Shown here one piece after another: positions 5,799 through 45,414 of a stretch of 64,000 nt of DNA; position 1 is the first letter of the stretch, and every line of letters starts with the position of its first letter. The stretch is taken from the sequence record HE978309; one strand, 5' to 3'. Made by a program: the position numbers and the translations under genes. Below the pieces are notes generated by a model. That model saw only the letters and a list, made by a program, of their open reading frames with translations. It searched no databases and was not told the DNA's origin. The DNA comes from Enterobacteria phage GEC-3S.

Positions 5799-5829
5799 AA
5801 TATAATCCTCTCGTTGTTTAGATGGGAGT

Positions 5830-5858
5830 ATCTTACTACTCCCGTTTCATCATGTCAA
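5830..5858 (-). promoter_or_regulatory. sigma70-type early promoter (TTGACA, 17 bp, TAAGAT) with GGGAGTAG/ACTCCC inverted repeat around the -10
   Basis: read directly; near-identical copy at 6740-6768 and 28571-28599. Confidence 0.55.
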
Positions 5859-16064: not shown

Positions 16065-16093
16065 ATTATGCTATACTACGATCCGGTTGTCAA
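16065..16093 (-). promoter_or_regulatory. sigma70-type early promoter (TTGACA, 17 bp, CATAAT)
   Basis: read directly. Confidence 0.55.
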
Positions 16094-16098
16094 CACCT

Positions 16099-16133
16099 AA
16101 AAACGAAAAAGCCACCCTTTCGGGTGGCTTTTT
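16099..16133 (-). terminator. rho-independent terminator, potentially bidirectional
   Basis: AGCCACCC-tttc-GGGTGGCT hairpin flanked by an A-tract and a T-tract. Confidence 0.65.
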
Positions 16134-26795: not shown

Positions 26796-26981
26796 TCAGA
26801 AATATGCAATATAGTTTGCCAGTCCTACAGAGTCATCATTCGGCATTGCTTTTACTGCCAGTTCAAACCCTGCTTCAACTTTCTGTTTAGCGGATTCTTC
26901 GTTATAACCCCAGATTACCAGAATAGCTACTACGTTTTCTTTGCTTACTGCTTTCAGTGCTTTAGTGATGCGACGTGCCAT
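26796..26981 (-). CDS. hypothetical protein
   Basis: track ORF; GGAGAATCAAATT before ATG. Confidence 0.55.
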   Translation of the reverse strand: MARRITKALKAVSKENVVAILVIWGYNEESAKQKVEAGFELAVKAMPNDDSVGLANYIAYF

Positions 26982-29017: not shown

Positions 29018-29046
29018 ATTATTCTATAGTCGTTTATGGTTGTCAA
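29018..29046 (-). promoter_or_regulatory. sigma70-type early promoter (TTGACA, 17 bp, AATAAT)
   Basis: read directly; weaker -10. Confidence 0.45.
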
Positions 29047-29051
29047 CACCT

Positions 29052-29082
29052 AAAAACAAAAAACCCCGAAAAATTTTCGGGG
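29052..29082 (-). terminator. rho-independent terminator after the 57B-like gene
   Basis: perfect CCCCGAAAA-a-TTTTCGGGG hairpin followed by a T-tract on the minus strand. Confidence 0.7.
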
Positions 29083-41800: not shown

Positions 41801-41973
41801 AATTGTTCCACGGACTTAAAGCAAGCGAACGAAGATTTGCAATGAGTCCACTGTTTGACCAGTCGGCGGTAACATTCTCTATGTTCCGTGAACTTGTAGA
41901 TCAACGGTTGAAGGATAATATAGGGAATCCACGCGATCCGAAGAATCCGACACAGAGGAAAATTAATGGCTAA
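38887..41973 (+). CDS. 7: baseplate wedge protein gp7
   Basis: 1028 aa; position and size as T4 gp7. Confidence 0.85.
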   Translation: MIKAPSVTSLTIEKLSANQAYITWDDVGENFFYFVELAETRTRDGEIIPVDELSWVNLGYTAEQNWFEDKNLFPEYYYKFRVAVAAEGFEQSKWVETEEFQTFKTNAYNFSMMREFNLANEFIKEKFTYDNREYVKFNTDLIQASLMKEDFVFSPEYANMTNISNYIVVDENFHEIQDHIEKVCTDINRTMLAEMNGVLYLFERFQPIVKVSNDKGQSWKAYKAFNDRVGNPVSRTCVYQSKTTTYVLGYDRIFYGRQASDTRWSADDVRFSDDTITFAKVGDENDLGFDVEVFGVFSRLTGDTTKYAEAMACSDDYLWVGAKDVIRRIRLKNTPVDTVQGSPTFGEKIFDPDVIRVTGNDKAVIQKMDVIDGKLLVFVTGEVKQRYQDPTKPENVVPSDDAGVYLIGSDGLSFQRVFGNTPQEREYIQHGFSNMSTNGDEVFISHYNHHFESILPDPETAAKYELGEAVKYSQEPTYLTDKKIHQTTFRASYDDLRIWELGPQAYYNEADYTWMRRNGVRVWITNDNRPLVVYPEVIYTQEVDTSGILDQNRVNREVYDKGTVTCYLNNVKFEGFKQYASGVMFHKNTGEIIGFYQFNYRVRDQVGVYWKPTNVAFVAELQNQVREVPWVPVHYDREQDPDLRPLLNKMTPDSFLLENENFRKFSEYYLQFLSDGSGTYYNKLKNLIKNKYPREQDAYEYLWSEMNKRNIYADKNKRDAVVRFFESRKSDFYSTKGVEASYKFLFKLLYNEDVEIEVESQAGLEYDIVVSSTNIDEDIVGRTIYTPTGRANVTYLEREYEGGRLRWRVTIHNLIGRFEEGQVIKSEKTAFEGMILVGVRGKELLSSSIDYINRSRSQYTMKIKSALPVSRYANDVMRFVHPVGFGFIGVTLLTMFINSGLSMKHTETIIQSLKNYKFDSGLPSVYPDRVADLDVDGNIKKDPLTGKALYLTSPTMGEEFPVPPEYDQENSELFHGLKASERRFAMSPLFDQSAVTFSMFRELVDQRLKDNIGNPRDPKNPTQRKING

Positions 41974-42961
41974 TGAAAATAGTGTGATCTATCGCTCAAT
42001 CATTACTAGTAAATTCAGAACGGAAAAACTTCTGAATTTCTATAATTCTGTAGGCGATGGGGCAAATCAAATTACAATTTATGGAACGTTTGGACGTTCA
42101 GAGCCGTGGTCAGAAAACGAAAAAGAGGTGGGCTTTGCCCCACCTTATCCGACCGATTCAACGGCTGGTGTTGTTGACATGTGGACCCATATGATGGGGG
42201 CGGTTAAGATTAACAAATCACTTCTTGATGCGGTTATCCCTCGTAAAGATTGGGGTGATACCGGACAGGATAACCCGCGCACATTCTTTATCAATGACAT
42301 TGTTGTTGTCAACTCAGCACCATATAACCGAACTGATGTTGGTAGCGGCTGGATGGTGTATCGCGTAACCGATGTTCCTGATCGCGGTTACTGCTCGATT
42401 TCAAGCATTGACGCTAAAGTAGAGTGTTTGAAGTTGGGCGGAAAGTGGACACCTACCCATGAATCAATCGCGCCACCTGTAGGAAAGGGCGATTCTATTG
42501 ATATGGGTGATGGGTATCGTTGGGAATATCTGTACACAATTCCACCTGATGCGGCGATCAACCGTTGCACCAATGAACATATTGTTGTACCGTTCCCCGA
42601 TGAACTGCGACAAGATCCGGCGCGTTGGGGCTATGACAATGTGATCACCTGGTATAATGACTATAATCTGCTTTATCGGCTGAAAGTAGTAACTTTGCGT
42701 TTTCAGGCTTATATGGACTCTGCGCAATTCCCAACTACCGCGTTAGTGGGTAATACTGGTTTCCGTCAGTTAAGCATTATCCTTAACCCATTGGAAAAGA
42801 AAGCACGCCCTAGCGATCCAGACGTTAAAGCGGTTCAAGATAAGTACCGTCCGCAAGACTTAGAGCCACACTCAGGCGAAATGATCTACATGGAAAACCG
42901 ACAACCTATCGTTCGGTCATTAGATCAAACAGAACTTGTTTCTGTATTGTTTGAGTTCTAA
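41966..42961 (+). CDS. 8: baseplate wedge protein gp8
   Basis: 331 aa; position and size as T4 gp8. Confidence 0.85.
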   Translation: MANENSVIYRSIITSKFRTEKLLNFYNSVGDGANQITIYGTFGRSEPWSENEKEVGFAPPYPTDSTAGVVDMWTHMMGAVKINKSLLDAVIPRKDWGDTGQDNPRTFFINDIVVVNSAPYNRTDVGSGWMVYRVTDVPDRGYCSISSIDAKVECLKLGGKWTPTHESIAPPVGKGDSIDMGDGYRWEYLYTIPPDAAINRCTNEHIVVPFPDELRQDPARWGYDNVITWYNDYNLLYRLKVVTLRFQAYMDSAQFPTTALVGNTGFRQLSIILNPLEKKARPSDPDVKAVQDKYRPQDLEPHSGEMIYMENRQPIVRSLDQTELVSVLFEF

Positions 42962-42974
42962 GTGTATGATTTAA

Positions 42975-43009
42975 AAGCCAATTCGAGAGAGTTGGCTTTT
43001 TCTATTTTT
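42975..43009 (+). terminator. rho-independent terminator after gene 8
   Basis: AGCCAA-ttcgagagag-TTGGCT hairpin followed by TTTTTCTATTTTT. Confidence 0.65.
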
Positions 43010-43013
43010 GGTG

Positions 43014-43041
43014 TTGACAATCTTGTCTGATAAGGTATAAT
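43014..43041 (+). promoter_or_regulatory. sigma70-type early-class promoter (TTGACA, 16 bp, TATAAT) inside the late gene cluster
   Basis: exact consensus hexamers; leader ACATCTAAACAACGGAGGATAAATTATG resembles the minus-strand early leaders. Confidence 0.65.
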
Positions 43042-43070
43042 GCTCACATCTAAACAACGGAGGATAAATT

Positions 43071-43328
43071 ATGGCACGTCGTAAATTTACAGATAATTGT
43101 GAAGCAATTCAGGTATCCCCTTGCGGTTGGGATGTGATCGCGAACGGTGAAAAGATCGGAGAGATCATCGATCATACTCATTCATCACTAGCCGATTACA
43201 CCGATGAACTATGGGAGGGTATCAACTTCATGAATGACACTAAACGATTCAAGACTATCGACGAAGCTATCTATTTTGTGTATAATCCAACTTTCGGTAT
43301 GTGGAGTGATAGAAAATGGCACGCGTAA
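43071..43328 (+). CDS. hypothetical protein (cassette gene 1, 85 aa)
   Basis: track ORF; GGAGGA before ATG; begins MAR like the two following genes. Confidence 0.6.
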   Translation: MARRKFTDNCEAIQVSPCGWDVIANGEKIGEIIDHTHSSLADYTDELWEGINFMNDTKRFKTIDEAIYFVYNPTFGMWSDRKWHA

Positions 43329-43645
43329 ATATTAAACTGCATTATACAATGGGTAAACCAAAACATCCAATGCATAAAGTGTTTTGGGGCTTACATCTTC
43401 AAGAAAAATGGCATGATAACTATTGGTTTTGTGACCATGATAAGAAGTGGCATTCTCAAGATGAAGTTAATGCGATGATGGAACAGGGTATAAAATTTAA
43501 TTACTCTAATTATGACCATAGCATTACTTGTATTCGAAAATTGAAACGGTTTATTCGAAAGAATCCGCAATTTAAAAACTTTGTGTTCTTTATGTCTCAT
43601 GTTTATTTGGGGCATAGCGTTACAGTAACAGCAAAGGTTAAATAA
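43316..43645 (+). CDS. hypothetical His/Trp-rich protein (cassette gene 2, 109 aa)
   Basis: track ORF; overlaps both neighbours (translational coupling). Confidence 0.6.
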   Translation: MARVNIKLHYTMGKPKHPMHKVFWGLHLQEKWHDNYWFCDHDKKWHSQDEVNAMMEQGIKFNYSNYDHSITCIRKLKRFIRKNPQFKNFVFFMSHVYLGHSVTVTAKVK

Positions 43646-44484
43646 TGGCACGACTTTCTAAACAAGAACAAAAATTACACGATCTGGCGATGGAGCTAAT
43701 CAATTCAGATCGCCCATTGACCTATGAAGAAAAAGAATTTTGCTATAATAACTATCAGGGCGATGGTCTAGGCGGTTCAGGTGCATTCTTTACCCCAGAA
43801 GGGCTTGCATGGGATTTTACCATCGATGCACATTGCACAGGAAAAGTATTAGATCTTTGTGCTGGGATCGGTCGCTTATCTTTTTGTATGTTACATCGTT
43901 GTAAGCCAGAAAAGATCGTATGCATCGAACTCAATCCAGAATTTGCGCGGATTGGCAAGAGACTATTACCGGAGGCAGAATGGATCACCAGCGATGTATT
44001 CGAATTTGAGTCAAACGAAAAATTCGATGTGGTGATCAGCAATCCACCTTTCGGGAAAATCAATACAACCGACACAAAGGATGTATTTGAGTACACTGGC
44101 GGCGAATTTGAATTTAAGGTTATGACATTAGGCCAGAAGTTTGCCGATGTAGGTTATTTTATTGTTCCTACTGGTTCTGCTGGTTTTGCCTATTCTGGTA
44201 GACCTTATTATGACGGGACCATGAAGTCTAATAAATATCTAAAATGGAGCAAACAAACTGGTTTGGTGACTTATGCCGGATGTGGGATCGATACATCAAT
44301 CTATCGCGATGAATGGCATAGTACCAACGTTTTAACAGAAGTGGTTGAGGTTCGGTATTACGAGAAAGAAGCCGTAGAAGCGCCTAAATCGCGTCCTAAC
44401 GAACAAATAGAAGAAAGTAAGGAGATTACCTTACCGAAACAGGAAAGCGAGTCTGGGACGCTCTCAGATTTGTTTGACATTTAA
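43645..44484 (+). CDS. SAM-dependent methyltransferase (N6-adenine or N4-cytosine-type NPPF motif; target unknown)
   Basis: motif I VLDLCAGIGRL then motif IV VISNPPFG about 45 aa later; TAATG overlap with the upstream gene. Confidence 0.7.
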   Translation: MARLSKQEQKLHDLAMELINSDRPLTYEEKEFCYNNYQGDGLGGSGAFFTPEGLAWDFTIDAHCTGKVLDLCAGIGRLSFCMLHRCKPEKIVCIELNPEFARIGKRLLPEAEWITSDVFEFESNEKFDVVISNPPFGKINTTDTKDVFEYTGGEFEFKVMTLGQKFADVGYFIVPTGSAGFAYSGRPYYDGTMKSNKYLKWSKQTGLVTYAGCGIDTSIYRDEWHSTNVLTEVVEVRYYEKEAVEAPKSRPNEQIEESKEITLPKQESESGTLSDLFDI

Positions 44485-44489
44485 TTATA

Positions 44490-44515
44490 AGCCGTCCTTG
44501 TGGGCGGCTTTTTTG
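44490..44515 (+). terminator. rho-independent terminator closing the cassette
   Basis: AGCCGTCC-ttgt-GGgCGGCT hairpin followed by TTTTTT. Confidence 0.65.
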
Positions 44516-44524
44516 TATGTATTT

Positions 44525-44532
44525 TATAAATA
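44525..44532 (+). promoter_or_regulatory. T4-type late promoter TATAAATA for gene 9
   Basis: exact TATAAATA 28 bp upstream of the ATG. Confidence 0.65.
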
Positions 44533-44559: not shown

Positions 44560-45414
44560 ATGGCACAAGTTCCAAAGAAAAGAATAGACACAGGTACTGT
44601 CGGCAATCCATCGACTGGCGATATCTTATATGATGGTGGTAATAAAATTAACGATAACTTTGATTCAATCTATGACGCATTCGCTGATCAACGGTTTAAA
44701 GACGTAGACCACGGCGTAGGAAGAATGGTTATTCATGCAACCGGATACTATCAGAAGCATCCACGTCAAAGCTACGCTGGTTCCGCTGTTGAGATTGGGA
44801 GTCTACACGATATCGATACAACTCAAGGCGCACTTATTGCTATTCTACCTAAAGCAAAGGTCGGTGAGGGTGTTGTATTCATAAATAGTAACGGTAGCCT
44901 TTCAACGACGACACCGCTCAATATTCGAACTCAAGCAGGTGATTCTATTAGCGGGTATTCCGGTGATGCTACAATAACACAACCATTTTCAAAAGTCACT
45001 GTTTGGTGTACTGCCGTTGAAGGTAGTCGCGTAACATGGCGATTGGGTATCGAAAGTATGTTTACCGATACAACAACGCCATTAGATAAAACAGTTAACG
45101 TAACTGGAGTAGCAACAAACGTTGCTATTGCCGCAAAAACAGAATACGTTTCCATCAAATTATTAACTACCGCTAGCAATACATCCGGTTCAAAAATGCG
45201 TTCAAGTGAAACGCTACTGATGATTGATTCTAAAGCCGGAAAAGTTTATGCGACGGAATATGCAGTTTTGCAGAAGACAGAAGATGAACTATACACGGTT
45301 CGTTATTTCATCGGTTCCGGCGATAAAGTATATGCAGAGTATAAGGCTACTGGCGAAAATATTCGTTTAGCAGTTAAAGCCGTAGACACTATTAAAATCG
45401 GGGTTGCTACATGA
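44560..45414 (+). CDS. 9: baseplate wedge / long-tail-fibre socket protein gp9
   Basis: 284 aa; position and size as T4 gp9. Confidence 0.8.
   Translation: MAQVPKKRIDTGTVGNPSTGDILYDGGNKINDNFDSIYDAFADQRFKDVDHGVGRMVIHATGYYQKHPRQSYAGSAVEIGSLHDIDTTQGALIAILPKAKVGEGVVFINSNGSLSTTTPLNIRTQAGDSISGYSGDATITQPFSKVTVWCTAVEGSRVTWRLGIESMFTDTTTPLDKTVNVTGVATNVAIAAKTEYVSIKLLTTASNTSGSKMRSSETLLMIDSKAGKVYATEYAVLQKTEDELYTVRYFIGSGDKVYAEYKATGENIRLAVKAVDTIKIGVAT

Follow-up and report, generated by a model that had tools for sequence, protein, structure and literature searches.

The 64,000-nucleotide (nt) stretch of Enterobacteria phage GEC-3S analysed here (sequence record HE978309; hereafter the window) contains a putative transcription unit between the baseplate genes 8 and 9, which consists of two open reading frames (ORFs) of 85 and 109 amino acids (aa) and a gene for a 279-aa methyltransferase. 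The last nine residues of the methyltransferase, GTLSDLFDI, resemble the C-terminal end of the replicative DNA polymerase gp43 and are predicted to form an epitope that binds the gp45 sliding clamp. On balance, the enzyme is probably an early-expressed DNA adenine methyltransferase that is tethered to the clamp, as suggested by the class of its catalytic core and the likeness of its tail to the polymerase. The cassette as such is ordinary and known, while the clamp-peptide tail on a methyltransferase is, as far as determined, new; the literature searched yielded no description of a methyltransferase, from phages or bacteria, that carries a clamp-binding motif. The window belongs to Krischvirus, and a 1.7-kb region that covers the unit is 97.9% identical to Escherichia phage RB49 at positions 73731-75420.

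A polymerase-like peptide at the C-terminal end of the methyltransferase

The methyltransferase gene and the segments of its product are located as follows in the window.

43645-44484, + strand: 279-aa methyltransferase ORF (RB49p143), from the ORF list and its motifs
43645-44379, + strand: catalytic core, aa 1-245, with motifs X, I and IV
43780-43797, + strand: motif X, GAFFTP (aa 46-51), a sequence motif
43849-43878, + strand: motif I, LDLCAGIGRL (aa 69-78), a sequence motif
44041-44052, + strand: motif IV, NPPF (aa 133-136), a sequence motif
44380-44454, + strand: disordered acidic linker, aa 246-270, modelled with low confidence and absent from bacterial homologs
44455-44481, + strand: C-terminal GTLSDLFDI, aa 271-279, predicted gp45-binding epitope, from its likeness to the gp43 end

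The methyltransferase ends in ...ESESGTLSDLFDI (GTLSDLFDI) and gp43 of RB49 in ...EKVASLTDLFDI (ASLTDLFDI), so that TLSDLFDI in the former corresponds to SLTDLFDI in the cognate polymerase. The C-termini of 120 T4-like polymerases yielded the consensus [KR]A[ST]L-x-D-[LMIF]-F-[DG]-[FI]-COOH, and a position-specific scoring matrix (PSSM) was trained on 92 unique C-terminal 9-mers of gp43, with the RB49-like ones left out. When applied to 550 ORFs of the window, the matrix placed the tail of the methyltransferase first with 13.4 bits, followed by a spurious ORF of 35 aa with 7.9 bits. Among 1630 six-frame ORFs of a whole RB49-type genome, gp43 itself was ranked first (16.1 bits) and the methyltransferase second (13.4 bits), and all other annotated proteins scored at most 8.8.

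In the AlphaFold2 (AF2) model, residues 246-279 are disordered, with a predicted local distance difference test (pLDDT) score below 50, except for a one-turn helix over SDLF (residues 273-276). In a comparison with a relative that is 68% identical (P0002), identity was highest over the last nine residues (89%), intermediate over the core (74%) and lowest in the linker (34%). A conserved end behind a variable linker is what would be expected if selection acts on a short linear motif. The epitopes of gp43, gp55 and gp33 in the T4 family likewise consist of a hydrophobic and acidic extreme C-terminus that follows a divergent, unstructured linker (Geiduschek & Kassavetis 2010, PMC2988020). The clamp of phage RB69 has been crystallised with the last 11 residues of the polymerase (PMC2988020; see also PMC9690074), the clamp-binding epitopes of the T4 family are interchangeable, and the epitope of gp55 is preceded by a linker that is both divergent and unstructured (PMC2988020). 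Here, in contrast, the carrier of the peptide is a methyltransferase, a type of protein that is not included among the gp45 ligands listed in PMC2988020, and the binding is a prediction.

The DNA sequences of gene 43 and the methyltransferase gene have only TTTGACATTTAA in common, a stretch of 12 identical nucleotides. The codons that precede it differ synonymously between the two genes (gac/gat, ctg/ttg and ctt/ctc) and the flanks are unrelated. A recent copy of the 3' end of gene 43 into the methyltransferase gene was therefore rejected, and the identity of the tails has been kept at the protein level.

Tails with a linker and a terminal peptide were identified in 13 clusters of phage-type homologs. 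Those of the relatives end in ...GTLTDLFDI (P0002), ...GSLSMFDI (P0004) and ...KTLDFVDFSEI (P0003), and the metagenome sample from which P0004 was obtained also holds a gp43 protein that ends in ...ASLSDLFDF. A second form of the tail is present in Slopekvirus and Pseudotevenvirus, where a linker rich in proline and glutamic acid is followed by ...DLFTFTIE, ...NLFTFTIE or ...NFTFRIE. In the Slopekvirus KP15, gp43 contains SLNDLFGDW and the methyltransferase KSDLFTFTIE, with an aspartic acid before LF in both proteins. In four Pseudotevenviruses, gp43 contains SLNTLFGD(D/G)W and the methyltransferase AQNLFTFTIE, and the corresponding residues are threonine and asparagine. The residue before LF in the tail of the methyltransferase still tracks the cognate polymerase (D/D in KP15 and T/N in the Pseudotevenviruses). 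A strict one-to-one co-variation of the two tails was only partly borne out, since the tails are near-identical in Krischvirus and share no more than the x-LF core in the others. Homologs encoded by bacterial chromosomes (about 100 clusters, 236-242 aa) from Citrobacter, Enterobacter, Salmonella and Klebsiella are 53-61% identical to the window enzyme; they end in ...VTVEY and lack the tail. In the favoured reading, the phage enzyme gained its acidic linker and its terminal peptide, the latter as a mimic of the gp43 end.

The class and fold of the methyltransferase

The initial annotation had named the motifs LDLCAGIGRL and NPPF in the 279-aa protein, and both were confirmed at aa 69-78 and aa 133-136, respectively. 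Together with GAFFTP, they are arranged in the order that is typical of gamma-class enzymes, namely motif X (xFxTP), motif I (FxGxG-like) and motif IV ((D/N)PP(Y/F)). GAFFTP, LCAGIG (aa 71-76) and NPPF are invariant in 26 homologs. The protein passed the cutoffs of the Pfam models MTS (37.7 bits, cutoff 23) and Eco57I (28.6 bits, cutoff 25.3), and the sequence profiles detect only the core that includes the S-adenosylmethionine (SAM) binding site and NPPF. These results place the 279-aa protein among the SAM-dependent amino-methyltransferases. Its fold is that of the N6-adenine nucleic-acid methyltransferases, which taken alone fits DNA as well as RNA, and N6-adenine is the putative product. 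The PADLOC models for mad2 and type II methyltransferases align to aa 44-145, and the match to mad2 is not full-length, as aa 44-139 correspond to positions 269-370 of the 492 in the profile. No partner nuclease was identified in the cassette.

Compared with the gamma-class N6-adenine enzymes (M.TaqI, the Eco57I/MmeI family, HsdM and lmo1582/YtxK-like proteins), the phage enzyme is much smaller, has an identity of 11-19% and lacks a recognisable target-recognition domain. Its alignment with the METTL5/PH1948 N6-adenine methyltransferases, which act on rRNA, spans only 172-173 residues. METTL5 differs in that it has neither the N-terminal helical region with FFTP nor a clamp peptide, and it needs TRMT112. 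The T4-type Dam protein (RB49p063) is a phage DNA adenine methyltransferase that is encoded by the same genome, but it belongs to another class and family, and its C-terminus (...EVYVTNVD) contains no clamp-like peptide.

It is an unlikely, though not negligible, alternative that the enzyme methylates RNA in the manner of METTL5, RsmC or KsgA, with rRNA or tRNA as the target, or that it modifies protein glutamine residues in the manner of PrmC, and thereby tunes host translation early in infection. The tail would then be non-binding, or it would bring the enzyme to late transcription complexes on the clamp, where it would act on nascent RNA. The fold does not discriminate between these substrates, and the bacterial homologs without a tail have no restriction partner. 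Against this stand the scores to the curated models. Several GenBank records name the protein PrmC, the release-factor glutamine methyltransferase, but it scored 36.5 bits to NCBIfam TIGR03534, which has a cutoff of 199.1, and the alignment is confined to the SAM/NPPx core. An annotation note in RB49 cites RsmC, the 16S rRNA m2G1207 methyltransferase, and the score to NF007023 was 28.8 bits against a cutoff of 295. With scores so far below the cutoffs, neither name is supported. The match to the structure 2pjd in PDB had an E-value of 4e-4 and covered 80 residues only. GAFFTP and the longer structural alignments instead favour the gamma-class DNA enzymes, and a clamp peptide of the polymerase type would make little sense on an enzyme directed at the ribosome or at release factors.

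A further argument against an RNA or protein substrate comes from Dickeya phage JA13 (L014, 1501-2670), in which the core of the methyltransferase is fused to a C-terminal domain of about 140 aa. This domain contains SVDLIVFS in the place of the DPPY region as well as VLDPYMLRGYTG...IGIEQDP, and it resembles a degenerate DNA methyltransferase of the beta class. The next gene but one encodes a DNA adenine methylase.

The initial annotation had considered the target to be unreadable from the sequence. This holds for the fold, which by itself gives no choice between DNA and RNA, but the combination of an N6-adenine-type fold with a tail that matches the clamp peptide of the polymerase points to DNA as the putative substrate.

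One of the bacterial homologs without a tail, P0040, is represented by more than 800 contigs. In Citrobacter freundii (L017-L019, 9001-9717), it is located at the edge of an island of small ORFs of unknown function with an HNH protein and insertion sequence elements, adjoining the core genes bssR/yliH, yliI, gst and dacC. No restriction enzyme is evident near P0040 in C. freundii, and the only nuclease there is the HNH ORF, which is unlinked and placed 5 kb away.

Observations for and against a tethered enzyme

Several observations weigh against a DNA adenine methyltransferase that is expressed early and tethered to the clamp. The match to the DNA methyltransferase models is weak, with a score of 16.8 bits to Pfam N6_Mtase that missed the cutoff of 20.4, and the core of about 245 aa has no recognisable target-recognition domain. 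The second class of tails (…LFTF[RT]IE) resembles the gp43 peptide loosely, in x-LF only, with PSSM scores of -0.4 to 6, and the co-variation of the tails is drawn from few lineages. Homologs without a tail were found in bacteria, the T4-like Aeromonas phage 65, phiM12 and a Yersinia jumbo phage; the core of the methyltransferase therefore works without a clamp. RB49 gp33 (...TNTLDI) and gp55 (...SLDQFYEIEN) score low on the matrix trained on gp43, and since these proteins are homologs of the T4 clamp ligands, the matrix is narrow and misses some clamp binders. Finally, the early transcription of the unit is predicted from the promoter sequence as its sole basis. The absence of the tail in Aeromonas phage 65 also rejects the idea that it is universal in T4-like phages.

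Alternatively, the protein could be an orphan anti-restriction DNA methyltransferase that diffuses freely, with a tail that is irrelevant or used otherwise, for example to compete as a regulator with gp43 or gp33/gp55 for gp45, or for the control of stability. Such orphan methyltransferases are common in phages, and RB49 also has Dam and RB49p189. Homologs without the tail are evidently functional elsewhere, and the strict identity to gp43 is limited to the last five residues. We nevertheless find this rather improbable. The terminal peptide is better conserved than the catalytic core behind a hypervariable linker, it is the sole top scorer in the genome that is not a polymerase, and its identity survives synonymous divergence. 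Moreover, the same tail architecture arose in at least two forms, in T4-like phages only. The clamp-tethered enzyme remains the reading that is favoured on balance.

A probable PeSL early unit nested in the late baseplate operon

The unit and its neighbours are arranged in the order gene 8, terminator, perfect sigma70 promoter, 85-aa ORF, 109-aa ORF, methyltransferase, terminator, TATAAATA and gene 9. In addition to the methyltransferase, the following features were identified.

41966-42961, + strand: gene 8, baseplate wedge subunit (Pfam PF09215, Phage-Gp8, E 2e-143; PHROG 977; gene 8 in RB49)
42973-43000, + strand: intrinsic terminator hairpin, stem-loop of the promoter-early stem-loop (PeSL) element, with a 12-bp stem, a 4-nt loop and a T-run
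42976-43054, + strand: PeSL element with hairpin, T-rich tract, -35 box, -10 box and leader, from repeat matches within the window
43014-43041, + strand: consensus sigma70 promoter TTGACA-16 nt-TATAAT, predicted to be early (12/12 match)
43071-43328, + strand: 85-aa ORF (RB49p140/141), accessory (PHROG 16603)
43316-43645, + strand: 109-aa ORF (RB49p142), accessory, rich in His, Trp and Lys (PHROG 12630)
44489-44510, + strand: intrinsic terminator that closes the early unit, with a 9-bp stem, 6 GC pairs and a T-run
44525-44532, + strand: late-promoter motif TATAAATA for gene 9, an exact match 28 nt upstream of the ATG of gene 9
44560-45414, + strand: gene 9, baseplate wedge tail-fibre connector (Pfam T4_gp9_10_N, E 1e-40; PHROG 967; gene 9 in RB49)

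All of the elements that the initial annotation had listed were recovered at their positions. Genes 8 and 9 are indeed neighbours in T4, where the gap between them is 63 bp long and empty. The unit is bounded by terminators, as had been proposed: the hairpin at 42973-43000 has a folding energy of -15.6 kcal/mol (z -3.8) and the hairpin at 44489-44510 one of -15.9 kcal/mol (z -5.0). The promoter matches the consensus at 12 of 12 positions with a spacer of 16 nt. The window contains six perfect TTGACA-N15-18-TATAAT sites where 0.11 would be expected, and of these only the one at 43014-43041 is on the + strand. The first hairpin is predicted to end the late transcript of genes 6-8, and TATAAATA at 44525-44532 to restart late transcription for gene 9. 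Since TATAAATA occurs eight times in the window against 6.1 by chance, and hence not above chance, the late promoter is argued from its position and conservation.

PeSLs were described in RB49 and phi1 (Arbiol et al. 2010, PMC2839356; Comeau et al. 2014, PMC4122927). They consist of a near-perfect sigma70 promoter, a terminating stem-loop, an AT-rich upstream tract, and a Shine-Dalgarno sequence with a start codon, and one subclass has the stem-loop upstream of the -35 box (PMC2839356). Each genome holds about 51 copies, and "a few" of these are located in virion modules beside genes of unknown function, where they block the spill-over of early and late transcription (PMC2839356; PMC4122927). 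They are a published class of mobile early-promoter cassettes, and for other PeSLs, promoter and terminator activity in vivo as well as a role in recombination or the formation of mini-circles have been shown (PMC2839356).

The locus resembles these elements in having a sigma70 promoter, a stem-loop terminator that is placed 13 nt upstream of the -35 box, a T-rich tract before the -35 box, and a Shine-Dalgarno sequence with a start codon at the 3' end. It is also located upstream of ORFs that are not part of the core and is similar to other copies in the genome. The segment at 42976-43054 is a 79-nt inverted copy of 2079-2157 with 77% identity, a repeat that includes the leader. Four partial matches were found at 16087-16114 (89%), 29040-29066, 5812-5836 and 21932-21957, and all of the repeat partners belong to the leftward early region. 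The suggested resemblance of the promoter and leader to the early-region cassettes on the opposite strand was thereby borne out. The locus is very probably a PeSL early unit that is insulated by terminators and nested in the late baseplate operon, and because of this identity, the cassette is a kind of object that is already known. The usual cargo of a PeSL is an orphan ORF that differs from one close relative to the next, whereas the methyltransferase is held at this position across a clade wider than the genus. The gp8/gp9 locus and its methyltransferase are not discussed in the two PeSL papers (PMC2839356, PMC4122927). In the early region of the window (1-30000, - strand), PeSL-type repeats are dense and can be sorted into the families D1-D7, with units of 61, 47 and 26 nt; some of the early-region repeats hold the start-codon and Shine-Dalgarno block CATAATATAATCCTC, which is present in eight copies.

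The three genes overlap and all begin with Met-Ala-Arg (MAR), as the initial annotation had pointed out. The overlap is 13 nt between the 85-aa and 109-aa ORFs and 1 nt (TAATG) between the 109-aa ORF and the methyltransferase gene, and ATGGCACG opens each of the genes at 43071, 43316 and 43645 on the + strand. The ATGGCACG octamer occurs in four copies in the 64 kb, on both strands and always at gene starts, the fourth at 26981 on the - strand. Of 105 likely genes in the window, 14 start with MA and four with MAR. The copies of the 85-aa and 109-aa ORFs in phage FV3 start with MSLRK and MAHVN, and the shared start is therefore not simply inherited. It could be due to selection on the context of translation initiation or to chance.

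Occurrence in Krischvirus and its wider relatives

Each of the 57 Krischvirus records in the phage collection contains the locus, and the same 57 records carry the RB49-type gp43. The cassette genes are annotated in RB49 as RB49p140-143 (ORF140-143), with p143 named "DNA methyltransferase", and RB49ORF143w was listed as an ORF with a methyltransferase domain already in 2006 (PMC1524935). With annotations across 57 records and a domain listed since 2006, the novelty of the cassette had been overrated by the initial annotation.

More distant T4-like relatives were obtained as five metagenomic contigs (L007-L011) by a homolog search and contig look-up. The methyltransferases on these contigs are 64-68% identical to the window enzyme, and the contigs share the frame of the stop codon of gene 8, an AAAGCCA...TGGCTTTTT hairpin, a sigma70-like promoter, the methyltransferase gene, a hairpin, TATAAATA and gene 9. 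The AAAGCCA...TGGCTTTTT pattern is kept in L007, L010, L011 and RB49. L007, L010 and L011 also keep the sigma70-like promoter at the position equivalent to 43014-43041, the hairpin equivalent to 44489-44510 and TATAAATA at the equivalent site. No other ORF is found beside the methyltransferase gene in the gap in L007-L009 and L011, and L010 contains a single, unrelated ORF of 154 aa. The initial annotation had asked for the presence or absence of the genes between genes 8 and 9 in related phages, and the answer differs between them: the methyltransferase and its frame are kept, but the 85/109-aa pair is not. Across a clade that extends beyond Krischvirus, the methyltransferase is conserved as the resident gene between genes 8 and 9. 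Its GC content is 41.5% and that of the genome 40.8%; as these match, there is no sign that the gene has a recent foreign origin.

The methyltransferase homolog of Slopekvirus (KP15) and of Pseudotevenvirus (Lw1, GAP161 and others) is encoded in the early region of genes 41-61. The small ORFs beside the genes in KP15 and Lw1 were rejected as homologs of the 85-aa and 109-aa ORFs, with BLASTP E-values of 0.64 and 7.7. In Lw1 (L003, 4001-4786), the methyltransferase is annotated from an internal methionine (MDLVESDK...) and the tblastn match begins 45 nt upstream; its N-terminus is probably mis-annotated. Among the records of Escherichia phages, 56 contain the methyltransferase and 637 contain gp43. 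The family is absent from the records of Tequatrovirus and Mosigvirus, which contain hydroxymethylcytosine (hmC).

The 85-aa and 109-aa ORFs as accessory passengers

The profile searches suggested by the initial annotation for the three proteins were informative for the class of the methyltransferase only, as no match to Pfam, NCBIfam or PADLOC was obtained for the 85-aa and 109-aa proteins. These belong to PHROG 16603 and PHROG 12630, respectively, both of which are classed as unknown function. An exhaustive HMMER search with the 85-aa protein gave five matches among 1.84 billion representatives, one of which (P0249) was rejected as a homolog because it is an artefact of low-complexity repeats. 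A word-indexed search with the 109-aa protein gave five clusters in 5.8 billion, and its AF2 model, with a pLDDT of 53, was too poor for a fold search.

The two ORFs are also found outside the T4-like phages. In the rV5-like phage FV3 (NC_019517; L021, 2501-3076), the genes FV3_00023/24 are 75.8% identical at the nucleotide level to the window at 43071-43645. The pair in FV3 has a TTGACA...TATTCT promoter of its own, and the methyltransferase is missing there. About 30 Vequintavirinae contain only the 109-aa ORF, with about 77% nucleotide identity. These data indicate that the ORFs were exchanged recently, by horizontal transfer, between two myovirus families.

Within Krischvirus, the segment of the 85/109-aa pair has two alleles, with 95-99% identity in 18 records and 86-88% in 39 records, and the whole locus is 94-98% identical. 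The 109-aa ORF has a GC content of 33% against about 41% in the flanks. The RB49 record lacks 11 nt (GGTATCAACTT, window 43218-43228; L001, about 3319), which splits the 85-aa ORF into RB49p140 and p141; either the 85-aa gene is dispensable or the record contains a sequencing error. The small ORFs behave as accessory genes by these three measures, that is the two alleles, the low GC content of the 109-aa ORF and the frameshift in RB49. They are independent passengers with a history separate from that of the methyltransferase. The ribosome-binding region of the methyltransferase, AAGGTTAAATAATGGC, is common to L011, where it directly follows the promoter, and to the window, where it is located at the end of the 109-aa ORF, which argues that the two ORFs were inserted between the promoter and a methyltransferase gene that was already there.

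The initial annotation had suggested that the unit moved to this site as a whole. The three genes would then form a translationally coupled module, for example with the small proteins as two specificity or regulatory subunits of the methyltransferase, and would have been transposed together into the gap between genes 8 and 9. The tight packing, the overlapping stops and starts and the common Met-Ala-Arg start fit with such a module, as do the PeSL and terminator that flank the three genes and the presence of all three in 57 of 57 Krischvirus records. However, it is very improbable, since the same site in the relatives holds the methyltransferase alone or with the unrelated 154-aa ORF, and the 85/109-aa pair occurs without the methyltransferase in FV3, as does the 109-aa ORF alone in many rV5-like phages. 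The non-homologous neighbours of the methyltransferase in KP15 and Lw1 reject a conserved three-gene module, and the frameshift of the 85-aa ORF in the RB49 record, the divergence of the small-ORF alleles (86-88%) compared to the whole locus (94-98%) and the lower GC content of the 109-aa ORF are also at odds with it. Instead, the locus illustrates a layered gain of genes at one PeSL, with a resident gene and a two-gene passenger that an unrelated phage family has in common.

A putative mechanism and its implications

In the proposed mechanism, the unit would be transcribed early in infection by the host sigma70 RNA polymerase, and the hairpins would separate it from the late transcripts of genes 6-8 and gene 9. 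Once replication has started, the tail would dock the methyltransferase on gp45 clamps that are loaded on the phage DNA. The clamp would give a small enzyme that lacks a recognition domain both a tether to the DNA and the ability to slide in one dimension, and the new, cytosine-containing phage DNA would become methylated at adenines at the fork or just behind it. The methylation would shield the phage DNA from restriction, and an anti-restriction role of the enzyme, which the initial annotation had also thought plausible, may be the result. This would provide a simple physical account of how a tiny methyltransferase without a recognition domain reaches its substrate, and it suggests how T4-like phages that contain cytosine protect their nascent DNA.

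The nearest concept in the literature is the interaction of DNMT1 with PCNA (cited in PMC9690074), in which a DNA methyltransferase is likewise tied to the replication clamp by a short linear motif and methylates new DNA. DNMT1 is a C5-cytosine enzyme for maintenance methylation with an internal motif and a clamp of another family, whereas the viral protein is an amino-methyltransferase of the adenine type with the motif at its C-terminus. The two cases would thus be analogous rather than homologous.

The enzyme family is found in genera that are reported to lack the hmC pathway, Slopekvirus and Pseudotevenvirus among them. For Krischvirus, the absence of the pathway is stated in PMC13390438. 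A more speculative extension, to which a low probability is given, is that T4-like phages without hmC (Krischvirus, Slopekvirus and Pseudotevenvirus) use clamp-tethered methylation as a replication-coupled mark of "self" that assumes the discriminating function of hmC in T4. Because gp45 loads only on replicating or nicked phage DNA, the methylation would in this case be aimed processively at the phage DNA and not at the host chromosome. The adenine mark would then protect from host restriction as well as from the phage's own nucleases against host DNA, given that RB49 keeps denA. The known clamp ligands of the T4 family are the clamp loader, the polymerase and two late-transcription factors. 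If the self-mark exists, the methyltransferase would be the fourth class of gp45 ligand and the first prokaryotic or viral counterpart to DNMT1-PCNA. A DNA-modifying enzyme that docks by this peptide would by itself extend the "tool-belt" of the clamp to epigenetic marking.

DNA modification and other observations in related phages

No data on adenine methylation in Krischvirus or RB49 were found in the literature searched, and the paper on an "unknown DNA modification" in KP15/KP27 does not mention the methyltransferase gene. Modifications of the glucosylated-methyl-cytosine type have been described in the Krischvirus SAP, which lacks the known pathway genes, and its 99.96% identical relative TB34 has plain cytosine (PMC13390438, 2026). 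SAP and TB34 both carry the cassette, with 94.3% identity to the window, and an amino-methyltransferase with NPPF is no obvious source of the cytosine modification in SAP.

Three DNA methyltransferases are annotated in RB49, namely Dam, p143 and p189, which is unrelated. Although the genus lacks the hmC pathway, RB49 has also retained denA, which encodes endonuclease II, and a homolog of the gene 56 dCTPase. The loci of the RB49 record concerned are the following.

L004: 25923-26735
L022: 21891-22607 and 36529-36990
L024: 9490-10008

Several Krischvirus-like phages encode gp43 in two separate genes, which are interrupted by a small ORF or an insert (L016, 879-4020; kvi, PTE-Eco09). The T4-like polymerases from metagenomes are often C-terminal subunits of about 390 aa, such as P0121 (391 aa).

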